Assembly (NCBI GenBank): GCA_025963875.1
Contig: JAOPZY010000072.1
Location: 1 to 33,932, forward strand
Direction of reading: 5' to 3'
Source of the DNA: Actinomycetota bacterium
GTDB lineage: Bacteria; Actinomycetota; CADDZG01; JAHWKV01; JAOPZY01
DNA length: 33,932 nucleotides
Positions 4,369 through 33,932 of the stretch are shown in pieces. Both the position numbers and the translations under genes were made by a program. Numbering within the stretch: position 1 is the first letter of the stretch; every line of letters begins with the position of its first letter. Under the pieces are notes generated by a model. It ran no database searches and was not told where the DNA came from. It saw only the letters and a list, made by a program, of their open reading frames with translations.

Positions 4369-5298
4369 TCACCTGCCGAGGGGTGCGGCCGGCAGCAGGG
4401 CGGTCACGACCCAGCCACCGGAGCGCTCGGCCATCTGTAATGAGTAGTCCAGAATCGCCTTGAGCCCGCCGGCGTCGGTGCCGGCAACTTCCGCCCGCAC
4501 CGTCCGCACGCCGGCGTGGTCCGATGGGCCCTCGGCAATCCCGATCAATGCCACCGACGTGAAGGGCGGCGGTGTCACTGGGGTCAGGCCCGGGCCAGGA
4601 TCGCCCTGGCCCGCAAGGTAGGCGTCAAGGAAGTGCCGCACCGCAGTCGCAGGCGCGTCGCCGGATGGCGCCGACAGGTGACCGAGCCCGACCGGCGGCA
4701 GTGAGGTGGGTGTGGGGGCCGGGACCTCGGACGGGAGCGAGGTGGCGACCAGGGGCCCGGAGGCCGACATCACCCCGACCCGGTAGTAATGGGTCCCGGC
4801 CCGCACGTACCCACCCTGGGCGGCCACGAGCACCTCGGCGCCGACCGTGACCGCCCAGTAGCCCGGGGCGGACTCGGAACTGGCCACGGCGGCGGTGCGG
4901 GCTGCGTAGCGGCCGGAGGGGGTCACGTCGTGGAGGTCCACCGCCTCGGGGTAGTAGGGCCGCAGGGTCTGCTCCTGACCTGCGCCCGCCTCCAGGTAGG
5001 CGGCGACGTACATCTCCGCAAACCCGGCGATGCCGGCGGGCGCGACCGTGGGGGCCACTTTCGAGGCCGGAGCGGCGGCGTGGGAGCCTCCCCAGACCAT
5101 CGCCCGCAGGCCCCCGGCCCCCGCCAGCGCGATGAGGATCCAGAGGCCAGCGGTGGCCGCCTTCACCTTCCAGGCCCTGAGGGCGTCGGCGAGGTCGCCG
5201 CGCCCCTCGTCGATCACGACGTGAGATGCCGGCGGGTTGCTGCTGGGCCGGAGGGTGGCATCGAGCACAGGGGACGGCAGGACAGGCGCGGCTCGCAC
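4369..5298 (-). CDS. TcpC-like (VirB8-like) conjugal transfer protein
   Basis: N-terminal TM helix, GFAEMYVAAYL, YWAVTV and VRHFLDAYL motifs of the two-domain TcpC fold; AAGGAG RBS (5308-5313) before the GTG. Confidence 0.8.
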   Translation of the reverse strand: MRAAPVLPSPVLDATLRPSSNPPASHVVIDEGRGDLADALRAWKVKAATAGLWILIALAGAGGLRAMVWGGSHAAAPASKVAPTVAPAGIAGFAEMYVAAYLEAGAGQEQTLRPYYPEAVDLHDVTPSGRYAARTAAVASSESAPGYWAVTVGAEVLVAAQGGYVRAGTHYYRVGVMSASGPLVATSLPSEVPAPTPTSLPPVGLGHLSAPSGDAPATAVRHFLDAYLAGQGDPGPGLTPVTPPPFTSVALIGIAEGPSDHAGVRTVRAEVAGTDAGGLKAILDYSLQMAERSGGWVVTALLPAAPLGR

Positions 5299-11479: not shown

Positions 11480-12484
11480 ATGAACGTGACGGCTTCCGTG
11501 GTGGGGAGCTACCCCAAACCACCACACGAGGGTCAACCCTTCCGGCTCCGCTCGGCAATCGCCGCCCGGGAACGCGGTGAGATCTCCGCCGCCGATCTGG
11601 AGGGCGTCCAGGACGATCTGGTCGAGGAGTTGATCCGCGAGCAGGTCGGCGCCGGCATCGACCTCGTCACCGATGGCCACGCCCGGTGGCCCGACGCCCA
11701 GACCCCCCTTGCCGCAGGCCTGGAAGGCTTCACCATGGCCCACGACGACCTGATCCGCTACTTCGACAACAACACCTACTACCGCCGCCCGCATGTCACC
11801 GGGCCGGTGCGCTGGAGGCAACCGATCACCGTGGAGGCCTGGCGCTTCGCCTCCGGCGTCGCCGCCCGCCCGGTCAAGCAGACCCTGACCGGGCCGTACT
11901 CGCTCGTGAAGCTCTCCAGGAACGAATACTACGAGGACGAGGCGGAGCTCGTACTCGACGTCGCCCGGGCGCTGAACGCCGAGGCTCGGGCTCTGGAGGC
12001 GGCCGGCGCAACGTACCTGCAGTTCGACGAGCCGGCGCTCGTGGCCCATCCCAGCGCGGCGCAGCATCCGAAGGACTTCGGGTTGGCGTTCGAGGCGGCA
12101 GCCGTCGCCGTCGACGGTCTCGGCCTCACGACGGAGCTCCGCACCTTCTTCGGTGGCGTGGAGGAGGCCCCCGAAGACTTCTTCGCGCTGCCGTTCGGCG
12201 TCTTCGGGCTCGACTTCGTCGACGGCGCTTCGAACTGGGACCTGGTGGCCGGCCTGCCGCTGGACCGGCGCCTGTCGGCGGGCCTGCTCGACGGCCGGAC
12301 GACGGCGCTGGAGTCGCTCGACTCGCTCCGGGACCAGATCCGGCGCCTCTCGGAGCTGACGGCGAGGGAGCGGCTGGAGGTGACGCCGTCCTGCGGACTC
12401 GAGTATCTGCCGCGTGACCGGGCGCAGCGCAAGCTCTGCCGTCTCGGCGAGGCCGTGCGGGCCGCGGCCGGTGTGGCGGTTTGA
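11480..12484 (+). CDS. Cobalamin-independent methionine synthase, N-terminal-half-like subunit (split MetE)
   Basis: VVGSYPK, QVGAGIDLVTDG, RYFDNNTYYRRP, LTGPYSL, QFDEP; the Zn HxC motif is replaced by RTFFG. ATG 11480 with GGAG RBS. Confidence 0.8.
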   Translation: MNVTASVVGSYPKPPHEGQPFRLRSAIAARERGEISAADLEGVQDDLVEELIREQVGAGIDLVTDGHARWPDAQTPLAAGLEGFTMAHDDLIRYFDNNTYYRRPHVTGPVRWRQPITVEAWRFASGVAARPVKQTLTGPYSLVKLSRNEYYEDEAELVLDVARALNAEARALEAAGATYLQFDEPALVAHPSAAQHPKDFGLAFEAAAVAVDGLGLTTELRTFFGGVEEAPEDFFALPFGVFGLDFVDGASNWDLVAGLPLDRRLSAGLLDGRTTALESLDSLRDQIRRLSELTARERLEVTPSCGLEYLPRDRAQRKLCRLGEAVRAAAGVAV

Positions 12485-13461
12485 AAAGGGAGTCGGTGAA
12501 CGGCCAGCTATTGATGACGCAGGTAGGGTCCCTGCCGAAGCCCGGCTACATCCTGGAGGCCCGGGCGAAGGCGCATCGGGGTGAGCTGCCCGCCGCCGAG
12601 CTCGAGGAGCTGGAGCGTCGAGCCACCCGGGAGTGGATCGAGTTCCAGGACGAGCTCGGCGTCGACATCCTCGTCGACGGCGAGATGTACCGGGGCGACA
12701 TGGTCGCCTACTTCGCCGAGCACCTCACGGGCTTCGAGGAGGGGGGTCTGGTCCGGGCCTACGGGAACCGCTACTACCGCAAGCCGATCGCCACGGGGCC
12801 GGTCGCCCGGCCGGCGCCGATCACCGTGGACTGGTGGCGCTACGCCCAGTCGCTGACGCAGCGCCCGGTGAAGGGGATGCTGACCGGGCCCTACACGATC
12901 TGCGACTGGTCGTTCAACGAGCACTACCCAAGCCGGGAGGAGTTCGTGCTGGCCGTTGCGGAGGCGATCGCCGAGGAGGCGCGGGCCCTTGCGTCCGCAG
13001 GGTGCCGGTACATCCAGATCGACGAGCCGGCGGTCTCGACGCGCATGGACGAGCTCGACCTCGCGATCCGGGGTCTTGCCGTCGTGACCGAGGGGCTGGA
13101 GGCGACAACCCTGACCCACATCTGCTACGGCGACTTCTCCCGCGCCTATCCCAAGCTCCTGGAGCTGCCGGTGGATGTGATCGACCTCGAGCTGGCCAAC
13201 TCGAACTACGACCTGCTCGACGATTTCCGCAGGCACCCCTTCACCAAGGTCCTCGGGCTCGGCGTCGTGGACTCGCACTCCGCCCGGATCGAGTCGGTGG
13301 AGGAGGTCGCCGCCGGGATCCGCCGGGCGCTGGAGCTGATTCCGGCGAGCAGTATCCAGGTCGACCCCGACTGCGGGCTCAAGACCCGAACCGTCGAGGA
13401 GGCCAAGGCCAAGCTACGGGTGATCCGGCAGGCCATCGACGTGGTGCGCTCCGAGCTGTAG
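12481..13461 (+). CDS. Cobalamin-independent methionine synthase, catalytic C-terminal-half subunit
   Basis: VGSLPKP, DGEMYRGDMV, KGMLTGPYT, IQIDEPA, Zn ligands HICYG and PDCGLKTR; overlaps the preceding stop. Confidence 0.88.
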   Translation: MKRESVNGQLLMTQVGSLPKPGYILEARAKAHRGELPAAELEELERRATREWIEFQDELGVDILVDGEMYRGDMVAYFAEHLTGFEEGGLVRAYGNRYYRKPIATGPVARPAPITVDWWRYAQSLTQRPVKGMLTGPYTICDWSFNEHYPSREEFVLAVAEAIAEEARALASAGCRYIQIDEPAVSTRMDELDLAIRGLAVVTEGLEATTLTHICYGDFSRAYPKLLELPVDVIDLELANSNYDLLDDFRRHPFTKVLGLGVVDSHSARIESVEEVAAGIRRALELIPASSIQVDPDCGLKTRTVEEAKAKLRVIRQAIDVVRSEL

Positions 13462-14016
13462 GGCCGCCGCGAGCGTGCCCGGGGGCAGGTGGTCCACGGC
13501 GATCGGCGCAGCGGGAGCACCAATGCCCGGGGCGAGTTCCCGCTGGAACCAGCCCACGTCGTGCCAGGCCCCCAGCTTCCAGCCCAGCTTCTCCTGGACC
13601 CCGGTGAGCCGGAACCCGCAAGCCTCGTGGAGGGCGACGCTCGCAGGATTCGGCAGGGCGACTCCCGCAAGCGCCTGCCGGTAGCCCTGGCGGGCCAGCA
13701 CATCGAGCAGGGACCGGTAGAGGACCCTCCCGAGGCCGGCGCCGCGGTGGTCGGCGTCCAGGTAGACGCTCGTCTCCACCGACCACCGGTAGGCGGGCCG
13801 CGGCTGGAACTGGCGGCCGTAGGCATAGCCGGCCACGCCGCTGCCGTCGGTCAGCACCAGCCACGGGTAGGTGGGCAGCACCGCCGTGATCCGGGCGACC
13901 ATCTCCTCGGCGGTCGGAGGCTCGAGCTCGAAGCTGATCGGGGTCGAGACGACGACCGGGGCGTAGATCGCGCGGATGGCGACGGCGTCGGCGGGAGTTG
14001 CGAGCCGGATCTGCAT
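13414..14016 (-). CDS. GNAT N-acetyltransferase (phosphinothricin acetyltransferase/ArsN-like)
   Basis: ISFELEPP, AYRWSVETSVY, PNPASVALHEACGF, GWKLGAWHDVGW; apparently leaderless. Confidence 0.88.
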   Translation of the reverse strand: MQIRLATPADAVAIRAIYAPVVVSTPISFELEPPTAEEMVARITAVLPTYPWLVLTDGSGVAGYAYGRQFQPRPAYRWSVETSVYLDADHRGAGLGRVLYRSLLDVLARQGYRQALAGVALPNPASVALHEACGFRLTGVQEKLGWKLGAWHDVGWFQRELAPGIGAPAAPIAVDHLPPGTLAAALQLGAHHVDGLPDHP

Positions 14017-14073
14017 CGGCAGAACGATAGGCGAGGGACGGGGGGAAGTTTGTTACCGTGCCGTGTCATCGCC

Positions 14074-15844: not shown

Positions 15845-15919
15845 GGTGACCGAGGGGAGTCGAACCCCCGACCTTCGGGACCACAACCCGACGCTCTAAC
15901 CAGTTGAGCTACGGCCACC
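15845..15919 (-). tRNA. tRNA-His (GUG)
   Basis: Minus strand GGTGGCCGTAGCTCAACTGGTTAGAGCGTCGGGTTGTGGTCCCGAAGGTCGGGGGTTCGACTCCCCTCGGTCACC: cloverleaf, GTG anticodon, G-1, no encoded CCA; TACCAT -10 upstream (15953-15948). Confidence 0.96.
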
Positions 15920-29154: not shown

Positions 29155-30030
29155 CTAGAGGGCGGCGATTTTCGGGATGATCTCCCGGCCGACGATCTCG
29201 ATGGGGTCGATGCGCTCCACGCCGAGCAGAACACCCATGGCCCCGTCGGCCCCTGCTTCGGCCAGGGCTGCGAGGTCGTCGAGCACCTGCGGAACCCGCT
29301 CGCCGTTGTCGCCCACATCCATGACGTAGTACACGGTCTTCATGATGCTGTCGAAGTCGCGGCCGACGTCGTCACAGTGGCGGCGGAGCACCTCCAGCTT
29401 CCCTCTGAGCTCCTCCGGCCCGGCGAAGAGGTTGCAGGCGTCGGCGTACTGGGCAACGAGGCGCAGGGTCTTGCGCTCACCGCCGCCCCCGATGAGGATC
29501 GGCGGGCGAGGGGTCGACAGCGGCTGGGGCGAGTTGAGCGTCCGGCCGAGCTTGTAGTACTTGCCCTCGAATGGTCCCTCGTCGTCGCTCCACATCTGCA
29601 GGATGATCTTGATCGTCTCCTCGAGGCGCTCGAACCGCTCCTTGAGGGGCGGGAACGGCACGCCCAAGCCGATGTGCTCCTCCTCATTCCAGGCGGCGCC
29701 GATCCCCAGCCAGGCGCGCCCCCCCGAGAGCACGTCCAGCGTGGTCACGATCTTGGCCAGGATGCCGGGGTACCGGTACGTGACGCCCGTCACGAGCGTG
29801 CCGAGGCGAGCCTGCTCGGTGTGGGCGGCGAGAAAGCCGAGGGTCGTATAGGCCTCGAGCATCGGCTCCTCGGAGGCGCCGATGCCGCGGATCTGGAAGA
29901 AGTGGTCCATGACCCAGATCGAGTCGTAGCCGGCGCCGTCGGCGGTCCGGGCGATCTCGGCGAGGGTGGGCCCGATCTCGGCGGCACCCCCGGGCCACGT
30001 GAACGAAGGAATCTGCAGTCCGAGTTTCAT
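29155..30030 (-). CDS. LLM-class F420-dependent oxidoreductase
   Basis: MKLGLQIP, WVMDHFFQI, TLDVLSGGRAWLGIGAAW, GGGGERKTLRLVA; AAGGAG RBS before ATG 30030. Confidence 0.92.
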   Translation of the reverse strand: MKLGLQIPSFTWPGGAAEIGPTLAEIARTADGAGYDSIWVMDHFFQIRGIGASEEPMLEAYTTLGFLAAHTEQARLGTLVTGVTYRYPGILAKIVTTLDVLSGGRAWLGIGAAWNEEEHIGLGVPFPPLKERFERLEETIKIILQMWSDDEGPFEGKYYKLGRTLNSPQPLSTPRPPILIGGGGERKTLRLVAQYADACNLFAGPEELRGKLEVLRRHCDDVGRDFDSIMKTVYYVMDVGDNGERVPQVLDDLAALAEAGADGAMGVLLGVERIDPIEIVGREIIPKIAAL

Positions 30031-30153
30031 CGTGTCGGCTCCTTTCCTGCCCCCCCGACCGCCAGTGTACCCAGCCGGCTCGCGGCATTTCCCCAAATCA
30101 GGCCATCGTCCGATGTCCGTTCGATCCGGCCCGACCTGCGTTAGCCTCGGCCC

Positions 30154-31047
30154 ATGGCAGGCGACGAACCCAAGGCGGGACCCAAGCCCACCGTTGCGAC
30201 TCGGACGCTCATCGGAGGGGTGGCGGTGATCGTTGTGGCGCTGATCCTGGCATTGACCGGCTTGGCGGTCTTCCGGGGTGGTTCTCCCGGGCGGTCGAGG
30301 CACGTCGTGGCTGCGCCAACGCCCACGCCGACCGCCACGGCTTCCCCGAGCGACACGCCCTCGACCTCCCCGACAGCGACGTCCGACGCGCCCGTCGAAA
30401 CCGGCCCGCCGCCCGGTTCGCTGGGGCCGCCACCGCCAGGAGACCCGGTCCCGTCGAGCTCGACCGTCGTGTACCTCAACGGCCCGGCGACCGTCCAGGT
30501 CTACGGCGCCCCGGACGCCGCCAAGCGGACTTCCACGCTGCGCGGCCGCAACAGCATCGATCAGCCTTCCGCATTCCTCGTGCTCGACCACCAGCCGGGA
30601 TGGTTCCACGTGCTGCTGCCCGTCGAGCCCAATGGCTCCACGGGCTGGCTGAAAGCGTCGGACGTCCAGGTGGCAGCGACGACCGACTACCTCCGGGTGA
30701 CGGTGTCGCAGTTCCGCATCGATCATTACGTGGCCGGCAAGTGGCACGGGGGCTTCCGCGTAGCGGTTGGCAAGCCGTCCACGCCGACGCCGACCGGGCT
30801 CTTCTACATCCTTGCGAGCCAGCAGGTGGACCAGGCCCCCTACACGCCCGGGATCTTCGCCCTGTCGGGCTTCGCCCCCCAGCCCATCCCCGGGTTCCTG
30901 GGGGCGACCCTGGGCGTGCACGGCTGGACCGACCCGAGCGTCATCGGCACGAGGGCGTCCAACGGCTGCGTGCGCTTGATGTCGAAGGACATGGAGCCGC
31001 TGCTGCGCACCCTGATCCTCGGGACCCCGGTCGACATCGTCGCCTGA
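30154..31047 (+). CDS. Membrane-anchored L,D-transpeptidase
   Basis: N-terminal TM, Pro/Thr linker, PTPTG, GVHG...SNGCVRL; apparently leaderless. Confidence 0.88.
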   Translation: MAGDEPKAGPKPTVATRTLIGGVAVIVVALILALTGLAVFRGGSPGRSRHVVAAPTPTPTATASPSDTPSTSPTATSDAPVETGPPPGSLGPPPPGDPVPSSSTVVYLNGPATVQVYGAPDAAKRTSTLRGRNSIDQPSAFLVLDHQPGWFHVLLPVEPNGSTGWLKASDVQVAATTDYLRVTVSQFRIDHYVAGKWHGGFRVAVGKPSTPTPTGLFYILASQQVDQAPYTPGIFALSGFAPQPIPGFLGATLGVHGWTDPSVIGTRASNGCVRLMSKDMEPLLRTLILGTPVDIVA

Positions 31048-31073
31048 ATTCGGGTTCGGGATCCGGTCCTGCC

Positions 31074-31568
31074 CTACTCGGAGTCCGGGGGGTGGAGGTT
31101 CCAGCGCCGGACAAGCCCATCGACGGAGGCGAAGTCCATGGTCAGGCCGTAGCGCTGCTGGAGCGCGGCGACGGCGTCCACGTCGGGGCCACCCGGCCGG
31201 GTGATCAGGGGCTCCAGTTCGGCGAAGAAGCGCTCGAAGCCCGCTGGCGAGATGATCTCCAGTACCCGGGCGGGTGCGTCGCCCGGATTCCAGAAGGCGT
31301 GCGGGATCCCCCGGGGCTTGACCACCAGGTCGCCCGGGCCCGCCACGGCGACCTCGTCGGCAACCTGTATCCCCACCCTGCCCTCGAGGACGAAGGTGTA
31401 CTCGTCCTCCCGCTCGTGGGTGTGCATTGGCGCCGCCAGGCACCGGGCATCGATGGGGTGCTCGACAAGGGCGAAACCGCCCCCGCTTCGCAGGCCGTCG
31501 ATAAGGAATCGCACGCCGAGGCCCCCGAAGCGCGCCACCGGGCCATCGGTCGGTCCCACGATGTCCAA
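31074..31568 (-). CDS. Cupin domain protein
   Basis: PMHTHEREDEY...KPRGIPHAFWN; AAGGAGG RBS before TTG 31568. Confidence 0.88.
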   Translation of the reverse strand: MDIVGPTDGPVARFGGLGVRFLIDGLRSGGGFALVEHPIDARCLAAPMHTHEREDEYTFVLEGRVGIQVADEVAVAGPGDLVVKPRGIPHAFWNPGDAPARVLEIISPAGFERFFAELEPLITRPGGPDVDAVAALQQRYGLTMDFASVDGLVRRWNLHPPDSE

Positions 31569-31669
31569 GAGCGCCCTCCTTGACGAGACGGGGGCTTTCC
31601 CGGGGGCCGGGACCCCACACCTCATTTTGCCTCAAGGGTCAATGGCTGCTCAGTCTTAAGGTTGCAGTT

Positions 31670-31940
31670 GCGGGCGAGGATCGAAGCAACCCTCCGGGTA
31701 GCTCCTGGGGGGCCGGTGGAGAGAGCTACCTATCCGCCCGGGACCGCACACAGGAACCCTTGGCCCGTAAGGCACAGGGAACGGCCGAATGCGGCGTAGG
31801 ACCCTGACTGGCGACCGGACCACCAGCGGATTCGAGGTCCGCAAGACCGTTCGGCGGGCTGGGGAGTGCTTGTCCCAAGTGCCCCTTCATTGAGGAACGG
31901 TTGAAGCGCGAGCCAGTAAGGCCAGGCGGCAGGGATTTTT
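31670..31940 (+). ncRNA. Candidate ~270-nt multi-helix structured RNA, family unassigned
   Basis: TAAGGT -10 at 31657-31662, dense nested helices, three NGYAA-capped hairpins, T-run at the end, no credible ORF. Confidence 0.5.
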
Positions 31941-32000
31941 CTCGGCTAGCGAGAACTTTCCGGCCACCTGCTCCGGTGGGGCTCATCGCCGTGGCGACAC

Positions 32001-33932
32001 TCACCTTCCGGCACCGATCTCGATGTCGTGGAGGGCCTCGTCGCCCTCCTTGACGATCTCGGAGTCCACCCGTAGCCCGGTGACCGGGCAGAGGTACTCC
32101 CGGTATCGCGCCCGGTGGCCAGCCCGGCCCTCCCGGGTGGCGAATTCCGGGGCGACGTCGCGCAGGGGGCGTTCCAGCACGGCGCAGCCGTCCTTGAAGT
32201 TGCCGCCGGCCGGAGCCAGCACGGCGCGCCCAGTGACGCTCACGAACGCCTCGGGCCGGCCGTCCCGCTCGACGACGGCCAGCTCGCCGGCGAGCGGCCG
32301 CAGCGGCACGTCTTCCGGGACCGTGGCCGGTGCGACGGCTGGCGGAACGGCACTGGCGAGCCGGGCGGCCAGCCGCTCGGCACGCAGCGCCCGGGTTGCG
32401 TCGTCGCCGGGCACCACCCCGTACACCCGCTCGGCCATGTCCGCCGGCAGCGCCCCGGTGGCGATGTCGACCCTCACCTGGGCCGGGTCGCGGGTGAGCG
32501 GGTCGCCGAAGCCGGGCGCGTTGGCCCCGGTCCACTCCCAGGCGGCGTCCGCGGCCATCATGAGCATCGGGCCCTTCGCCTCGACCTCCGCCTCGGCGCC
32601 GGCGATCGCGTCGAGGTCCTGCGGTACCTCCCCCGCGGCGAACCGGTCGGCGACGTCGGTGCCGTGCTTGAGCCGGAAATGCCCTGCCGAGCCGGGGTTG
32701 CCGCCGAACGGCCCGACGGCCTTGGGGAACGACTCGTCCGTGTAGACCGCCGCGGCCATGCCTGGCACGGTCCACGGGATCCCGGCCTCGACGAACCCGC
32801 GCCCGCCGCGGAACCGGCCAGCGCCGCCCGCACCCGCGCGGAGCGCCCGCCGGTAGAGGAACAGCATCGGCCAGAGCAGCTCGAGCTCCTCGATGTTGCT
32901 CGCGGTCCCCTCGGGAATCCAGAAATGGCCGCCGAAGTCGACGCCGTCGCCGGCCGGCGACGCTGCCAGCGAGCCGATCATGTTGTCGGCGTTGCTCGCG
33001 ACGAACGGCTCGCCGGTTGGGTGCGCCCCGCCGGAGATCAGGGCGTAGAACGTCGGGTGCGCGGGACCGATCGCGAGCTTGGCCACGTCCGGCTCGGCAC
33101 ACGCCAGCATCTTGCCGATGACCGCGCCGGACAGGCTGATCAGCGTCTCCATCGTGTAGATCCCAGACGGGCTGACCGCCGCGGGGAAGTCCGCGCAGGA
33201 CAGCGTCCCGGGCACCGGCTCGAAGTGCACCCGCCGGTACACCCCGCCGTACGCGCCGGCGAGGTCCGCGGTGAGCGAGGCGGTCAGCGCGGCAAGGAAG
33301 GCGCCCGAGAACCCCGCGTAGGTGACGTTGATCGAGCCGGTCTGCGGGTCGGTTCCGGCATTGTCCACGTACAGGTGCTCGCCCTGCTTGCGCACGGTGA
33401 TCTGGTACGTGTAGATGCCGGTATCGCCCGTGTGTGCGGCCTCGGCGTAGAGCCGGTGGCTCCACCGGCCGTCGGGGATCTTCGCCAGCCGCTCGGCGAC
33501 GGTCGCCTCGCCGGCGTCGAGCACCCGGTTCATCACCGACTTCACCGCGTCCGCGCCGTACCGGTCGACCAGCGCTGCGATCCGCCCGGCGGCCACCCGG
33601 TTCGCCGACACCGCCGCACGCAGGTCCATGTGCACGTTGGTCGGCAACCGCGACTGGCGCAGGAACATCTCCTCGAGGTCCGTGCGCACCTTGCCGCGAC
33701 TGACCAGCTTGAACGGCGGGAACGCCGGAGGGTCGGTGAAGATGTCCGTCGCGTCGACGCAGAAGCTGCCCATCACCGAGCCGCCGACGTCCGCGTGGTG
33801 CATGACGTTGGCCACCCAGCAGAACAGCTCGTCGCCGACGAACACCGGGGCGGCCACGATCGTGTCCGGCTGGTGCGGGGTGCCGACGTAGGGGTCGTTG
33901 GACACGAACATGTCGCCCGGCTCGATGCCGGG
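32001..33932 (-). CDS. Hydantoinase B/oxoprolinase-family protein with C-terminal acetone carboxylase gamma-like extension, 5'-partial
   Basis: PGDMFVSNDPY...HQPD, HHADVGG, GAGRFRGG, GFGDPLTRDP; tail REYLCPVTG. Frame is open to the window edge. Confidence 0.88.
   Translation of the reverse strand, partial: PGIEPGDMFVSNDPYVGTPHQPDTIVAAPVFVGDELFCWVANVMHHADVGGSVMGSFCVDATDIFTDPPAFPPFKLVSRGKVRTDLEEMFLRQSRLPTNVHMDLRAAVSANRVAAGRIAALVDRYGADAVKSVMNRVLDAGEATVAERLAKIPDGRWSHRLYAEAAHTGDTGIYTYQITVRKQGEHLYVDNAGTDPQTGSINVTYAGFSGAFLAALTASLTADLAGAYGGVYRRVHFEPVPGTLSCADFPAAVSPSGIYTMETLISLSGAVIGKMLACAEPDVAKLAIGPAHPTFYALISGGAHPTGEPFVASNADNMIGSLAASPAGDGVDFGGHFWIPEGTASNIEELELLWPMLFLYRRALRAGAGGAGRFRGGRGFVEAGIPWTVPGMAAAVYTDESFPKAVGPFGGNPGSAGHFRLKHGTDVADRFAAGEVPQDLDAIAGAEAEVEAKGPMLMMAADAAWEWTGANAPGFGDPLTRDPAQVRVDIATGALPADMAERVYGVVPGDDATRALRAERLAARLASAVPPAVAPATVPEDVPLRPLAGELAVVERDGRPEAFVSVTGRAVLAPAGGNFKDGCAVLERPLRDVAPEFATREGRAGHRARYREYLCPVTGLRVDSEIVKEGDEALHDIEIGAGR

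Follow-up and report, generated by a model that had tools for sequence, protein, structure and literature searches.

The window analysed here is a 33,932-nt contig from an Actinomycetota bacterium in which a cupin gene (31074-31625, minus strand) and a hydantoinase_B gene (32001-33911, minus strand) are separated by a gap devoid of Pfam-matching ORFs. What this gap encodes is the question that the locus raises. A first-pass annotation, made from the letters alone, likewise saw no credible ORF in the gap and proposed that positions 31670-31940 specify a heavily paired, stand-alone RNA of about 270 nt, either new or of the 6S/Ms1 type, running from a TAAGGT -10 element to a terminal ATTTTT. Instead, plus-strand positions 31636-31901 are very probably a decayed copy of a miniature, protein-less IS607-family derivative of about 336 nt that carries the scaffold of a TnpB omega RNA. 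The repeat nature of the element, its boundaries, its homology to tnpB 3' ends, the covariation in its RNA structure, the TnpB/Cas12f-like fold of the associated protein, the linkage to a serine recombinase, and the occurrence of part of the scaffold in RNA libraries were all computed here. The RNA would be bound by TnpB and would guide DNA cleavage.

Composition of the locus

Alignment of copies and blastn searches resolve the 31670-31940 stretch into four parts rather than a single unit (Table 1). In the 336-nt element, canonical positions 3-42 are the counterpart of the left-end (LE) remnant; the copies on contigs C242 and C6 and seven metagenome copies have this left end too, and upstream of GGGT their sequences are unrelated. 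At the right end (RE), the GAACGGU motif is invariant or compensated across 21 relatives. The proposed 3' boundary near 31940 finds no support, since similarity among the copies ends at 31901, nor does the proposed ATTTTT terminator, which lies outside the element and occurs in no other copy. If an RNA were made, the flank beyond the boundary would constitute its guide segment, as in IS607 omega RNAs, which have a guide of about 18 nt reaching beyond the RE (bioRxiv 10.1101/2023.11.20.567912).

Table 1. Coordinates of features at the cupin-hydantoinase_B locus
Feature	Position	Strand	Remarks
Left-end (LE) remnant of miniature element	31636-31675	+	GGGTCAAT GGCTGCTCAGTCTTAAGGTTGCAGTTGCGGGC; includes TAAGGT
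Deletion junction	31675..31676	+	canonical positions 43-111 (69 nt) absent
Repeat core	31676-31901	+	homologous to 3'-terminal omega-RNA scaffold and right end (RE) of TnpB-like IS607-family elements
Helix P0, 3' strand CCGCCC	31734-31739	+	own 5' partner deleted in window
Middle-domain small hairpin GCCG-AAUG-CGGC	31784-31795	+	helix 8 of A3
Stem S2, GGUCCGC / GCGGGCU	31836-31860	+	closes conserved 11-nt loop AAGACCGUUCG
ACCGUUC in S2 loop	31846-31852	+	pseudoknot-type 5' arm; partner 31895-31901
Terminal hairpin GGGGAGUGCUUG UCC CAAGUGCCCC	31861-31885	+	GTGCTTG/CAAGTGC; helix 12 of A3
tnpB stop-codon relic TGA	31891-31893	+	inside conserved terminal motif UGAGGAACGGU
RE boundary, GAACGGU	31895-31901	+	pseudoknot 3' arm; similarity among all copies ends after ...GGAACGGT
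Unique flank	31902-31924		found at window locus only
Putative guide segment	31902-31919	+	flank unique to locus; holds TGAAG and part of GCC-AGTAA-GGC
Second, different small repeat	31925-31968		

All of the strings on which the first-pass annotation rested are present where it had placed them: TAAGGT (31657-31662), CGGGC/GCCCG, GGTAGCTC/GAGCTACC, GCC-CGTAA-GGC, CCCTG (31802-31806) with CAGGG (31930-31934), GGTC-CGCAA-GACC, GTGCTTG/CAAGTGC, CTTCA/TGAAG, GCC-AGTAA-GGC, and ATTTTT. Its choice of the plus strand as the sense strand was also correct, and the region is not a cis riboswitch, a role that the annotation had judged unlikely; no plus-strand gene lies downstream. The stretch does encode a structured-RNA module, but it folds no better than shuffled sequence, a result that the annotation had named as counting against its proposal. 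On the plus strand, the 281-nt stretch has a minimum free energy of -118.3 kcal/mol; its shuffles average -117.64 (sd 5.13), giving a z of -0.13, and 86 of 200 are at least as stable. The minus strand gives a z of +0.53. Simple scans of 31500-32100 returned neither sigma-70-like promoters nor terminator-like sites.

A dispersed miniature element

The core (31676-31901) is a dispersed repeat, with four copies in the same genome and seven on metagenome contigs that are 92-98% alike and have unrelated flanks. The window copy of the core is 92-97% identical to those on C4, C242, C6, and L017-L023. Within the genome, blastn identities to the core are 96% (C4), 95/94% (C242), and 92% (C6); the metagenome copies (L017-L023), located by an exact 20-mer, comprise seven loci, every one of the 336-nt form. 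This intact form is ORF-less, and the copy at L018:1091-1426 serves as the canonical reference. The element stands in at least nine genomic contexts with unrelated flanks, as expected of a mobile element, and a 144-bp paralogue on contig C172 ends precisely at the left junction of the C242 copy. No empty site could be obtained by way of the cupin gene, which the two congeners lack. In blastn searches, 60 relatives (including two same-genus genomes) gave no matches, and 26 other genomes of the order gave only two chance-level matches of 28-29 nt (E about 0.009). An exact 25-mer had no match in an assembled genome-contig collection, and plasmid and phage sequences gave no blastn match to the longest copy.

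The annotation had failed to match the region to RNase P, tmRNA, SRP, raiA, group I/II intron, or common riboswitch signatures, and the Rfam search bears this out: nothing relevant was found in the window at gathering cut-offs or at E <= 10 (the only models matched being two structure-less eukaryotic lncRNA models), nor in three other copies at E <= 1. A coding reading of the core was rejected, as copies differ by indels of 1-2 nt (L020, L017, L023, and the window); the sole long open frame in the core is a relic of the tnpB tail. The 213-nt module B of the C242 and C6 copies does not belong to the element; it was set aside as a secondary insertion with another small palindromic repeat.

Global alignment of the window copy with L018:1091-1426 maps the 69-nt deletion. 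The loss removes a GAAC-N4-GTTC palindrome that resembles a LexA box, the -10-like TATGTT, and the 5' strands of both helix P0 (GGGCGG) and hairpin P1; with it the scaffold loses its 5' third. The 3' two-thirds remain intact and differ from the canonical copy at six positions and by a 1-nt insertion. All ten other copies that reach this part retain the 43-111 module. Having lost operator, promoter, and the P0/P1 strands, the window copy is most likely a silent or crippled relic.

Homology of the core to tnpB 3' ends

The repeat core has homologues in a TnpB-like gene family, where they make up the last 250 nt or so of the gene. The core and the tnpB-like 3' ends share the motif order GAGGAU.., GAGAGCUACC, ACAGGAACC, AAGACCGUUCG, GGAACGGU, which is found on contigs C34, C115, and C222 and in eight other genomes. 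The genome itself holds three full tnpB-like genes and one fragment, and a 22-mer search located four MAG loci with long ORFs that end in the block. The conserved structured region extends, in at least 18 tnpB-linked loci, from the codons after GRRGLG..RRR to ...GGAACGGT; the tnpB stop codon of such loci lies 8-10 nt from the RE boundary. In the long ORFs of L034, L037, C34, C222, and C115 the stop codon always falls within the UGAGGAACGGU motif, where the window retains its TGA relic; alignment to the canonical copy shows the window frame upstream of this TGA to be disrupted by a 1-nt insertion at 31780.

A covariance model (R1) was built from 18 tnpB-linked 3' ends only, the miniature copies being left out. 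R1 matches every miniature copy, and its single match in the window spans 31815-31901 (41.7 bits, E 8.7e-8). Its seven matches in the genome are the four tnpB-linked ends and three miniature elements. No TnpB closely matching the scaffold subtype of the miniature elements (L034-type) was found in the 94.6%-complete assembly, the best tblastn identity being 43%.

Covariation in the RNA fold

Three alignments support a conserved secondary structure with covariation, of the kind predicted for an omega RNA. In alignment A1 (21 sequences), 95.5% of cells are paired, compared with 28-56% when slid, and none of 500 shuffles scored as well. In A2, which covers hairpin P1, pair 31-42 is CG in 11 sequences and GC in 10. 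Alignment A3 (16 sequences) supports 55 pairs with 88.5% pairing, 38 of them with double changes, and none of 500 shuffles equalled it, although the scored structure was derived from A3 itself. For that reason, and because several rows are close kin (C34/C144, G186a/G159, and L034/L036), the shuffle counts overstate independence.

Helix P0, which is helix 1 of the family structure and inverted repeat I1 of the canonical copy, has four of five pairs changed on both sides. All four pairs of the small middle-domain hairpin are changed on both sides, with 92.2% of cells paired. Stem S2 (helix 1 of A1, helices 9-10 of A3) has seven of eight pairs changed on both sides and 91.6% pairing. The pairing of its loop with the 3' end is kept in 100% of cells across 21 sequences and includes two compensatory double changes (U-A to C-G in L036 and C-G to U-A in L052). 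In the terminal hairpin, relatives differ in sequence at the same place, and four of seven pairs are changed on both sides; only 69.4% of cells are paired, since the A3 alignment is imperfect there.

Measured against this structure, few of the helices drawn earlier survive. Only GTGCTTG/CAAGTGC, the terminal hairpin, belongs to the conserved fold, and most others are unsupported. In CGGGC/GCCCG, the GCCCG half does correspond to the 3' strand of a conserved helix, yet the CGGGC with which it pairs in the window is not that strand's homologous partner. GGTC-CGCAA-GACC and GGAT/ATCC clash with helices that covariation supports. The GGTAGCTC/GAGCTACC pairing occurs in the miniature-element subfamily only, and the C6 copy breaks it twice without compensation. 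CAGGG, TGAAG, GCC-AGTAA-GGC, and ATTTTT all lie beyond the element and are absent from every other copy. The shared pentaloop pattern dissolves, because one of its three loops is outside the element and another does not form a loop in the conserved structure.

The TnpB-like protein

Homologues of the TnpB-like protein are abundant: at least 5641 of 8000 scored sequences reach E <= 1e-5, some of them named IS605 OrfB family transposase. No curated TnpB family model matched above its cut-off. Pfam Cas12f1-like_TNB matched weakly (E 0.002, 18.5 bits, below the cut-off of 26.3), as did NCBIfam guided_TnpB (E 1.5e-4; scores of 12.2 and 21.2 bits where the cut-off is 100), and a sequence search of PDB chains returned nothing. 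The assignment to TnpB is therefore based on fold, motifs, and context. An AF2 model (pLDDT 72.9) has a TnpB/Cas12f-type fold with a RuvC domain. Its best Foldseek match is Cas12f (E 2e-8, about 500 columns), followed by Cas12k/m/g, the TnpB of ISFba1 (8e-4), Fanzor2, and RuvC; 40 matches reach E <= 0.001, with low TM-scores of 0.3-0.4.

The protein is about 560 aa long, its tail (481-566) is predicted to be disordered, and its invariant residues are D316, E378, and H463/H464. The D-E-D triad and C4 zinc finger usual for TnpB are not found: the third position is His and the CxxC pairs are absent. Nuclease activity is therefore putative and unproven. The family fits the RIIIr-4 clade, in which the RuvC-III Asp is replaced by His and the zinc finger is absent, and which its authors predict to be active (PMC10691335).

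Assignment to the IS607 family

On contig C34, a 204-aa ORF with a Resolvase N-terminal domain (E 3.5e-19) lies directly upstream of the tnpB-like gene, and the same recombinase C-terminus occurs upstream in nine of 20 loci; ORFs upstream of the MAG loci had no Pfam match. A serine recombinase adjoining some copies identifies the family as IS607-type. The ends are consistent with this assignment. Of nine inverted pairs in the canonical copy, none joins both termini, so there is no terminal inverted repeat (TIR), and the element junctions show no direct repeat that would mark a target duplication (TSD). The left junction is a G-rich RGGGGT(C/A) in all ten copies that reach it, and the right end reads ...AACGGT in all 21 aligned family members, one with T for C. 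IS607 elements are described as lacking TIR and TSD and as having a GG core and a TGGG TAM (bioRxiv 10.1101/2023.11.20.567912); judged by sequence, the GG core at the junctions and the G-rich left-end motif of the present element conform to that description.

Readings as an IS200/IS605 element (with Y1 transposase and subterminal hairpins), an IS110 bridge RNA, a group II intron domain V, and a retron were dropped: no Y1 transposase (Y1_Tnp) was found in the genome, the two ends have no matching hairpins, and a serine recombinase was found. The first-pass annotation had allowed that an IS end would remove the novelty of its RNA, and an IS607-type element end is what the locus contains.

A LexA-box-like palindrome at the left end

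In canonical copies, a box (AAGAACATATGTTCGG) overlaps the -10-like TATGTT; the window copy has none. The palindrome is of the CGAAC-N4-GTTCG type and sits at the promoter, like the SOS boxes of the host, which occur upstream of recA (TCGAACGTGCGTTCGG), lexA (one mismatch), and a dnaE2-like gene. The actinobacterial LexA consensus is given as tCGAAC-N4-GNNCGa (PMC9380542). Exact boxes also lie 57-93 nt upstream of tnpB in five of 20 loci, and seven of the eight loci with enough upstream sequence have a box with 0-1 mismatch at -607 to -721, immediately ahead of tnpA.

LexA may control the element, to judge from these boxes, and the palindrome could alternatively be a recombinase site. The fuller proposal is tentative and falls somewhat short of an even chance: the left-end palindrome would function as a LexA operator, kept throughout one actinobacterial IS607 subfamily, whether the element has both tnpA and tnpB, has tnpB only, or is an ORF-less miniature. 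If it were true, recombinase, TnpB-like nuclease, and even stand-alone guide-RNA cassettes would be induced by DNA damage, RNA-guided transposon homing would be coupled to the SOS response, and a RIIIr-4-type TnpB with a pseudoknotted omega RNA of about 250 nt would form an active, SOS-timed nuclease system. A full-text literature search found nothing linking TnpB or IS607 to LexA, and the conserved SOS-box-like operator is possibly the one new detail.

Scaffold sequences in RNA libraries

Four soil metatranscriptome runs yielded nine contigs whose cover is confined to canonical positions 53-337. The first 52 nt are bare in all nine, which is a hint only. The contigs are assembled, carry no information on strand, ends, or level, and break at repeat variants; 5' ends at canonical positions 90, 94, and 95 fall on a G-run that is variable from copy to copy. 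Five of the nine run past the RE by 9 to 255 nt into five different sequences, one of which is the right flank of locus L019; contigs cannot show a 3' end. DNA carry-over into the RNA libraries is possible, but the bare left end argues against it. The proposal of a TAAGGT promoter is unsupported; RNA contigs give no cover just downstream of TAAGGT in canonical copies.

Origin of the element and alternative explanations

The autonomous relatives carry a serine-recombinase tnpA and a gene for a TnpB-like, putatively RNA-guided nuclease. Up to the RE, the last 250 nt or so of this gene encode a structured RNA, very probably the omega RNA (reRNA) scaffold, for which the DNA just beyond the RE would be the guide. 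An internal deletion probably fused the LE, with its promoter and LexA-box-like operator, to this scaffold. The outcome would be a guide-RNA cassette reliant on trans-supplied TnpA and TnpB. A further 69 nt, comprising operator, promoter, and the P0/P1 5' strands, are gone from the window copy.

A stand-alone chromosomal regulatory RNA of about 270 nt, new or diverged from 6S/Ms1, is very improbable as a description of this locus. The missing Rfam match, the correct strand call, the conserved RNA structure encoded by part of the region, and the absence of a plus-strand gene downstream all speak for it, but the unit is multi-copy with unrelated flanks, was not found in 60 relatives including two congeners, and is homologous in its core to tnpB 3' ends. 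Its 3' third (31902-31940) recurs in no other copy, and the folding, promoter, and terminator results and the RNA contigs give it no help. A new class of ornate RNA is ruled out and a false lead is thereby removed; the locus holds a known kind of element, a TnpB omega-RNA miniature.

Two other explanations accept the mobile element and dispute its role. The window copy might be a still-working orphan guide-RNA gene, transcribed from a promoter in the LE or by read-through; a resident TnpB would use its RNA in trans, whether to protect this insertion or to regulate a target. Stem S2, the pseudoknot, the terminal hairpin, and the RE are intact, the CGGGC of the LE can fortuitously pair with GCCCG where P0 is lost, and the genome has three TnpB-like genes; yet this role is unlikely, for the operator/promoter module is deleted together with the 5' strands of P0 and P1, no promoter-like site was found, and the assembly has no cognate L034-type TnpB. 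Slightly less probable still is a role of the conserved 3' region chiefly at the DNA level (recombinase sites or architecture), or as a stability or processing element of the tnpB 3' mRNA, rather than as a scaffold. Short inverted motifs at IS607 ends are required for excision (bioRxiv 10.1101/2023.11.20.567912). The loop/3'-end pairing could alternatively reflect such motifs for the recombinase: ACCGTTC and GAACGGT are inverted, the GTTC/GAAC core recurs in the left-end palindrome, and both compensatory changes would preserve inverted-repeat symmetry as well. Against this, S2, P1, P0, and the middle hairpins vary in sequence yet stay paired; free variation with pairing kept is a mark of RNA structure and is not expected of protein-binding DNA sites. 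Serine recombinases, moreover, work on double-stranded DNA. The position and extent of the region also match the omega RNAs of studied TnpB/IS607 systems (PMC10055086; bioRxiv 10.1101/2023.11.20.567912), which favours the scaffold reading.

Comparison with known systems

The resemblance to 6S/Ms1 RNAs is limited to the size range and to being a GC-rich structured RNA in an actinobacterium; the present element differs in being multi-copy, mobile, absent from congeners, and homologous to the 3' end of a transposon gene. The RIIIr-4 clade (Altae-Tran et al. 2023, PMC10691335) is alike in the RuvC-III His and the missing C4 zinc finger, as seen in the invariant columns of alignment A4, and the present family is placed there by those two features only; the passages of that paper on the clade give neither an omega-RNA structure nor an SOS operator. 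The covariation-supported structure and the working covariance model reported here concern the scaffold of a very large TnpB branch (at least 5641 homologues) that Pfam leaves without annotation.

Among characterized transposons, the IStrons and IS607 elements of Clostridium botulinum/senegalense, with their TnpB and omega RNA (bioRxiv 10.1101/2023.11.20.567912), are alike in having tnpA(Ser) and tnpB, no TIR or TSD, GG junctions, a G-rich LE motif, and an omega RNA at the RE with a guide beyond the boundary (here a putative guide). The present family differs from them in belonging to MAGs of another phylum, the Actinomycetota, in lacking a group I intron, in its TnpB of about 560 aa with a RuvC-III His and no zinc finger, and in the LexA-box-like palindrome of its LE. 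The closest parallel to the miniature form is provided by the ORF-less, PATE-like minimal IS elements of Geobacillus stearothermophilus that encode omega RNAs (Meers et al. 2023, PMC10055086). Both are protein-less, retain both transposon ends and a guide-RNA scaffold, are multi-copy, and depend (here by proposal) on TnpA and TnpB in trans. The Geobacillus elements are of the IS200/IS605 type with palindromic ends and a Y1 transposase, whereas the present element is of the IS607 type with a serine recombinase, no palindromic ends, and a G-rich left flank, its window copy being truncated. ORF-less IS607-type cassettes for putative guide RNAs exist in soil Actinomycetota too.

Locus and dispersed repeat

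The stretch for which the first-pass annotation proposed a stand-alone ncRNA of about 270 nt (31670..31940) lies in the gap between a cupin gene (31074-31625, minus strand; Cupin_2, E 1.4e-17) and a hydantoinase_B/oxoprolinase gene (32001-33911, minus strand; E 4.7e-81), and every string quoted in that annotation is present where it was placed. As a single RNA the stretch is unremarkable. The plus strand of 31665-31945 has a minimum free energy of -118.3 kcal/mol versus a mean of -117.64 (sd 5.13) for 200 dinucleotide shuffles (z -0.13), 86 of which fold as well or better, and the minus strand gives z +0.53; the ornate fold claimed for it is thus not reflected in its folding energy. At Rfam gathering thresholds the window contains nothing but a tRNA elsewhere (15845-15918, minus strand, 65.1 bits), and at E <= 10 the interval 31500-32100 matches just two structure-less eukaryotic lncRNA models (E 1.8 and 3.5). 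A simple scan of this interval finds neither a sigma-70-type promoter nor a terminator-like site. Beside the gap, an 826-aa minus-strand ORF (29155-31635) is a high-G+C artefact that fuses a luciferase-like monooxygenase (Pfam match, residues 536-781) with upstream sequence overlapping the cupin gene, which is in a different frame and likely starts near 31572, at a TTG that follows AAGGAGG by about 8 nt.

The true nature of the stretch is that of a dispersed repeat, and the unit originally delimited is a composite. A search of the window's own assembly (3.84 Mb in 273 contigs, completeness 94.6%) finds 31676-31901 again on contigs C4 (96%), C242 (95% and 94%, the copy being split by 213 nt) and C6 (92%, ending at the contig end), and 31636-31679 also occurs upstream of the C242 and C6 copies. 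The sole match to 31925-31968 is an unrelated spot on C48. This segment is a separate imperfect hairpin repeat of about 45 nt (GGYGGCWGGGAUUYUUCUCGGCURGCGAGAAC.UUUCCGGCCACC), located in the window directly downstream of the hydantoinase stop codon; its second copy (C48:10704-10748, 89% identical) follows an unrelated plus-strand gene at a distance of about 100 nt. The ATTTTT and CAGGG of the original proposal come from this hairpin repeat.

The canonical 336-nt unit

The repeat has no match in 60 relatives, two same-genus genomes among them, or in plasmid and phage collections, and 26 other genomes of the order yield just two 28-29-nt matches (E about 0.009). An exact 25-mer does not occur in genome_contigs; a 20-mer retrieves seven metagenome loci, at all of which an ORF-less unit of 336 nt has the same extent between unrelated flanks. 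Similarity begins at (R)GGGGT and ends after ...CATTGAGGAACGGT. One locus, L017, is the C4 copy itself, and L021 and L022 have the right flank alone in common. Compared with the canonical copy (L018:1091-1426), the window copy is missing positions 43-111 (69 nt), has one additional base at 31780 and differs at 12 of 267 aligned positions, five of them within the first 10 positions, at the left junction. Indels of 1-2 nt distinguish the copies, which means that no coding constraint acts on the core.

Several copies adjoin other rearrangements. The C242 and C6 copies contain a 213-nt secondary insertion (C242:4959-5171) holding a different small palindromic repeat found on more than 10 contigs. 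This palindromic repeat of about 60 nt (core about 5050-5114; ..GTGAGCACAAAACGACGTACAGCGTCGTCCTGTACTCAAAG..) is present in both orientations on at least 10 other contigs and would thus represent another small MITE/REP-like family. A 144-bp segment duplicating the 3' end of a phosphoesterase-like gene (C172:2391-2534 and C242:5402-5545, 96% identical) stops exactly at the left junction of the C242 element, after GGGTCG, possibly because recombination or flank transduction took place at the element boundary. The C4 copy (C4:8325-8575) has a divergent lipoprotein-like gene start about 10 nt from its left end and, on its other side, an apparent C-terminal pair of beta-propeller blades that lacks the N-terminal part of such a protein, possibly because the insertion cut a gene short.

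Origin from a TnpB-like gene

Four MAG loci of other species, titled 'Actinomycetes bacterium' or 'bacterium', contain a 22-mer taken from where the conserved RNA part begins. At L034, L036 and L037 a conserved 33-nt block forms the end of about 800 nt of conserved sequence; L035 is truncated by the end of its contig. In L034 and L037 a long ORF spans the block, with its stop codon within the terminal motif TGAGGAACGGT, and L036 is a deletion derivative in which just a 38-codon frame is left. The window's own genome has three full homologues, C222 2479-4179 (566 aa), C34 45358-47034 (558 aa) and a frameshifted one on C115, as well as a fragment on C144. The frameshift of the C115 copy (12378-14068) falls at a G-run (about 13478-13481) and marks either a pseudogene or a homopolymer assembly error. 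The gene 3' ends and the window core have a common motif order, GUGUGAC..CCAGAGGAU.., GAGAGCUACC, ACAGGAACC, CGCAAGACC, AAGACCGUUCG and ..GGAACGGU. The 336-nt element is therefore an internal-deletion derivative, with the left end and promoter region joined to the final ~250 nt of the gene.

At least 5641 of 8000 scored candidates are homologous to the C222 protein at E <= 1e-5. They lack precomputed Pfam domains, and their names include 'IS605 OrfB family transposase' and 'nuclease/transposase family protein'. Profile matches fall below their cut-offs (Pfam Cas12f1-like_TNB, E 0.002, 18.5 bits, cut-off 26.3; NCBIfam guided_TnpB, E 1.5e-4 and 0.077, cut-off 100 bits), and a sequence search of PDB chains gives no match. 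An AlphaFold2 model from a 24-sequence alignment has a pLDDT of 72.9, with values below 50 at residues 481-566, a tail that overlaps the RNA region. Its best Foldseek match is Cas12f (E 2e-8, about 500 columns), followed by Cas12k, Cas12m, Cas12g, the ISFba1 TnpB (8e-4), Fanzor2 and RuvC among 40 matches at E <= 0.001. Invariant residues include D316 (AVDVN), E378 (IEDLDF) and H463/H464 (SGHH..AA.VIGRRG), and the alignment contains no CxxC pairs. TnpB clade RIIIr-4 is described as having His in place of the RuvC-III aspartate and as having lost the C4 zinc finger (PMC10691335); the protein carries the same signature and, by these features, would belong to that major clade.

In C34 a 204-aa Resolvase-domain ORF (E 3.5e-19) lies immediately upstream of the tnpB-like gene, the same recombinase C-terminus precedes tnpB in 9 of 20 loci, and a search of the window's own genome turned up no Y1 transposase. 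IS607 elements are described as having no terminal inverted repeat or target duplication, a GG core and a TGGG TAM (bioRxiv 10.1101/2023.11.20.567912). Likewise, neither terminal inverted repeat nor target duplication is seen in the copies of this element, and its left flank is G-rich. The gene is TnpB-like and the element IS607-type. Distribution of the gene is patchy: counting the window's own genome, it was detected in 3 of 113 genomes of the class, all belonging to the same genus, and in 9 of the 401 genomes sampled from the phylum.

Conserved RNA fold and the window copy

The 3' region encodes a conserved RNA fold. Alignments were drawn from tnpB-linked loci of nine genomes, the MAG loci and the mini element. 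In the 3' segment (21 sequences; L043, L053, L059, L064 and L035, whose contigs end before the right end, left out), stem S2 closes the conserved loop AAGACCGUUCG, and 7 of its 8 pairs vary in both strands. Between the ACCGUUC within this loop and the terminal GAACGGU, 100% of cells are paired and two double changes, in L036 and L052, are compensatory; this pairing could equally reflect inverted recombinase-binding DNA motifs. Overall, 95.5% of cells are paired, compared with 28-56% when the partner is slid, and none of 500 shuffles reaches the observed values. The 5' segment (21 sequences, excluding the window copy, from which this segment is missing, and L056, L064 and L053) forms hairpin P1 with the conserved loop CCRGMGGA; its pair 31-42 is CG in 11 sequences and GC in 10. 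The alignment of the whole region has 16 sequences; L034 and L037 were dropped for their long inserts, and L056 as a near-duplicate of L061. RNAalifold predicts 41 pairs for it, with compensatory changes in 33. With the terminal hairpin and pseudoknot added, the structure has 55 pairs in 12 helices, 38 of them with double changes; 88.5% of cells are paired versus 31-47% when slid, and 0/500 shuffles match this, for a structure derived from the same alignment and with several rows close kin. As an independent test of membership, a covariance model built exclusively from 18 tnpB-linked 3' ends matches every mini copy and, once in the window, 31815-31901 (plus strand, 41.7 bits, E 8.7e-8); its seven matches in the whole genome are four tnpB-linked ends and three minis.

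Features retained in the window copy of the element
Feature	Position
P0 3' strand	31734-31739
Middle domain (position of its hairpin)	31784-31795
S2	31836-31860
Pseudoknot arms	31846-31852 with 31895-31901
Terminal hairpin	31861-31885
Relic stop codon	31891-31893
Right end	31901

A structured RNA on the plus strand, as first proposed, stands; its nature, extent, promoter, terminator and most of its helices do not. GTGCTTG/CAAGTGC is the conserved terminal hairpin. GGTC-CGCAA-GACC conflicts with S2 and the pseudoknot, GGAT/ATCC occupies the P1 loop, and CGGGC/GCCCG pairs the P0 3' strand with non-homologous left-end sequence. The pairing GGTAGCTC/GAGCTACC is confined to the mini subfamily, where the C6 copy has two uncompensated breaks in it. 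CCCTG/CAGGG, CTTCA/TGAAG, GCC-AGTAA-GGC and ATTTTT use sequence right of 31901 that is absent from every other copy of the element. Devoid of operator, promoter and the 5' strands of P0 and P1, the window copy is truncated and probably silent.

SOS-box-like operator

The module deleted from the window copy holds GGTACAAGAACATATGTTCGGTAC, overlapping a -10-like TATGTT. Host recA and lexA have TCGAACGTGCGTTCGG and GCGAACAAATGTTTGC upstream, respectively, and a dnaE2-like PHP/PolIII-alpha gene and dnaB have similar boxes; the actinobacterial LexA-box consensus is given as tCGAAC-N4-GNNCGa (PMC9380542). The genome contains 54 exact GAAC-N4-GTTC sites. In 5 of 20 loci, which are all tnpB-only copies and come from four genomes, an exact box precedes tnpB by 57-93 nt. 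Among recombinase-bearing loci with at least 846 nt upstream (L034, with too little sequence, left out), 7 of 8 have boxes with 0-1 mismatches at -607 to -721, immediately upstream of tnpA, that of C34 being CGAACAGGTGTACG; the sole match in the eighth, L050, is at -1005. A full-text literature search found no paper linking TnpB or IS607 to LexA. Since its GTTC/GAAC core recurs in the right-end motifs, the left-end palindrome could also, or alternatively, serve as a recombinase-binding motif.

The RecA Pfam match on C8 (314-2179, minus strand) is split (1-198, 193-262) by about 1 kb in a 733-aa frame, which suggests an intein, and its SOS box lies about 150 nt upstream. At C26:8732 (L066) a box, TGCGAACATGTGTTCTGCT, is near-identical to the operator at the left end of the C222 and C115 copies; as Pfam matches none of the neighbouring ORFs, the site may be another element end.

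RNA-library contigs

Of 21 listed public runs, 20 contain part of the stretch; six of these are soil metatranscriptomes, in which its share is small. RNA runs from four studies, one run each, were mapped on L018:991-1526 and concern canonical copies rather than the window copy. Nine RNA contigs span L018 1143-1428 (canonical 53-337) and leave 1091-1142 uncovered. Three of them, which come from two studies, start with no loose ends at 1180, 1184 and 1185, near a G-run (1179-1186) that varies among copies; five extend 9 to 255 nt beyond the right end, each into a different sequence, and one of these sequences is the L019 right flank. The contigs carry no strand, ends or level and break at repeat variants; their coverage hints at transcription from within the deleted module and on across the right end, as expected of a guide-bearing RNA.

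Relation to known systems

The assembly has no TnpB close to the mini scaffold subtype (best tblastn identity 43%), so the minis may or may not be supplied in trans here. ORF-less PATE-like elements 'often encode omega RNAs' used in trans by TnpB (PMC10055086), and IS607 TnpB/omega-RNA systems have already been characterised (bioRxiv 10.1101/2023.11.20.567912); the mini element therefore belongs to a known kind. Possibly new are the putative family-wide SOS-box-like operator and a scaffold structure, backed by covariation, for a TnpB branch that is very large and poorly annotated.
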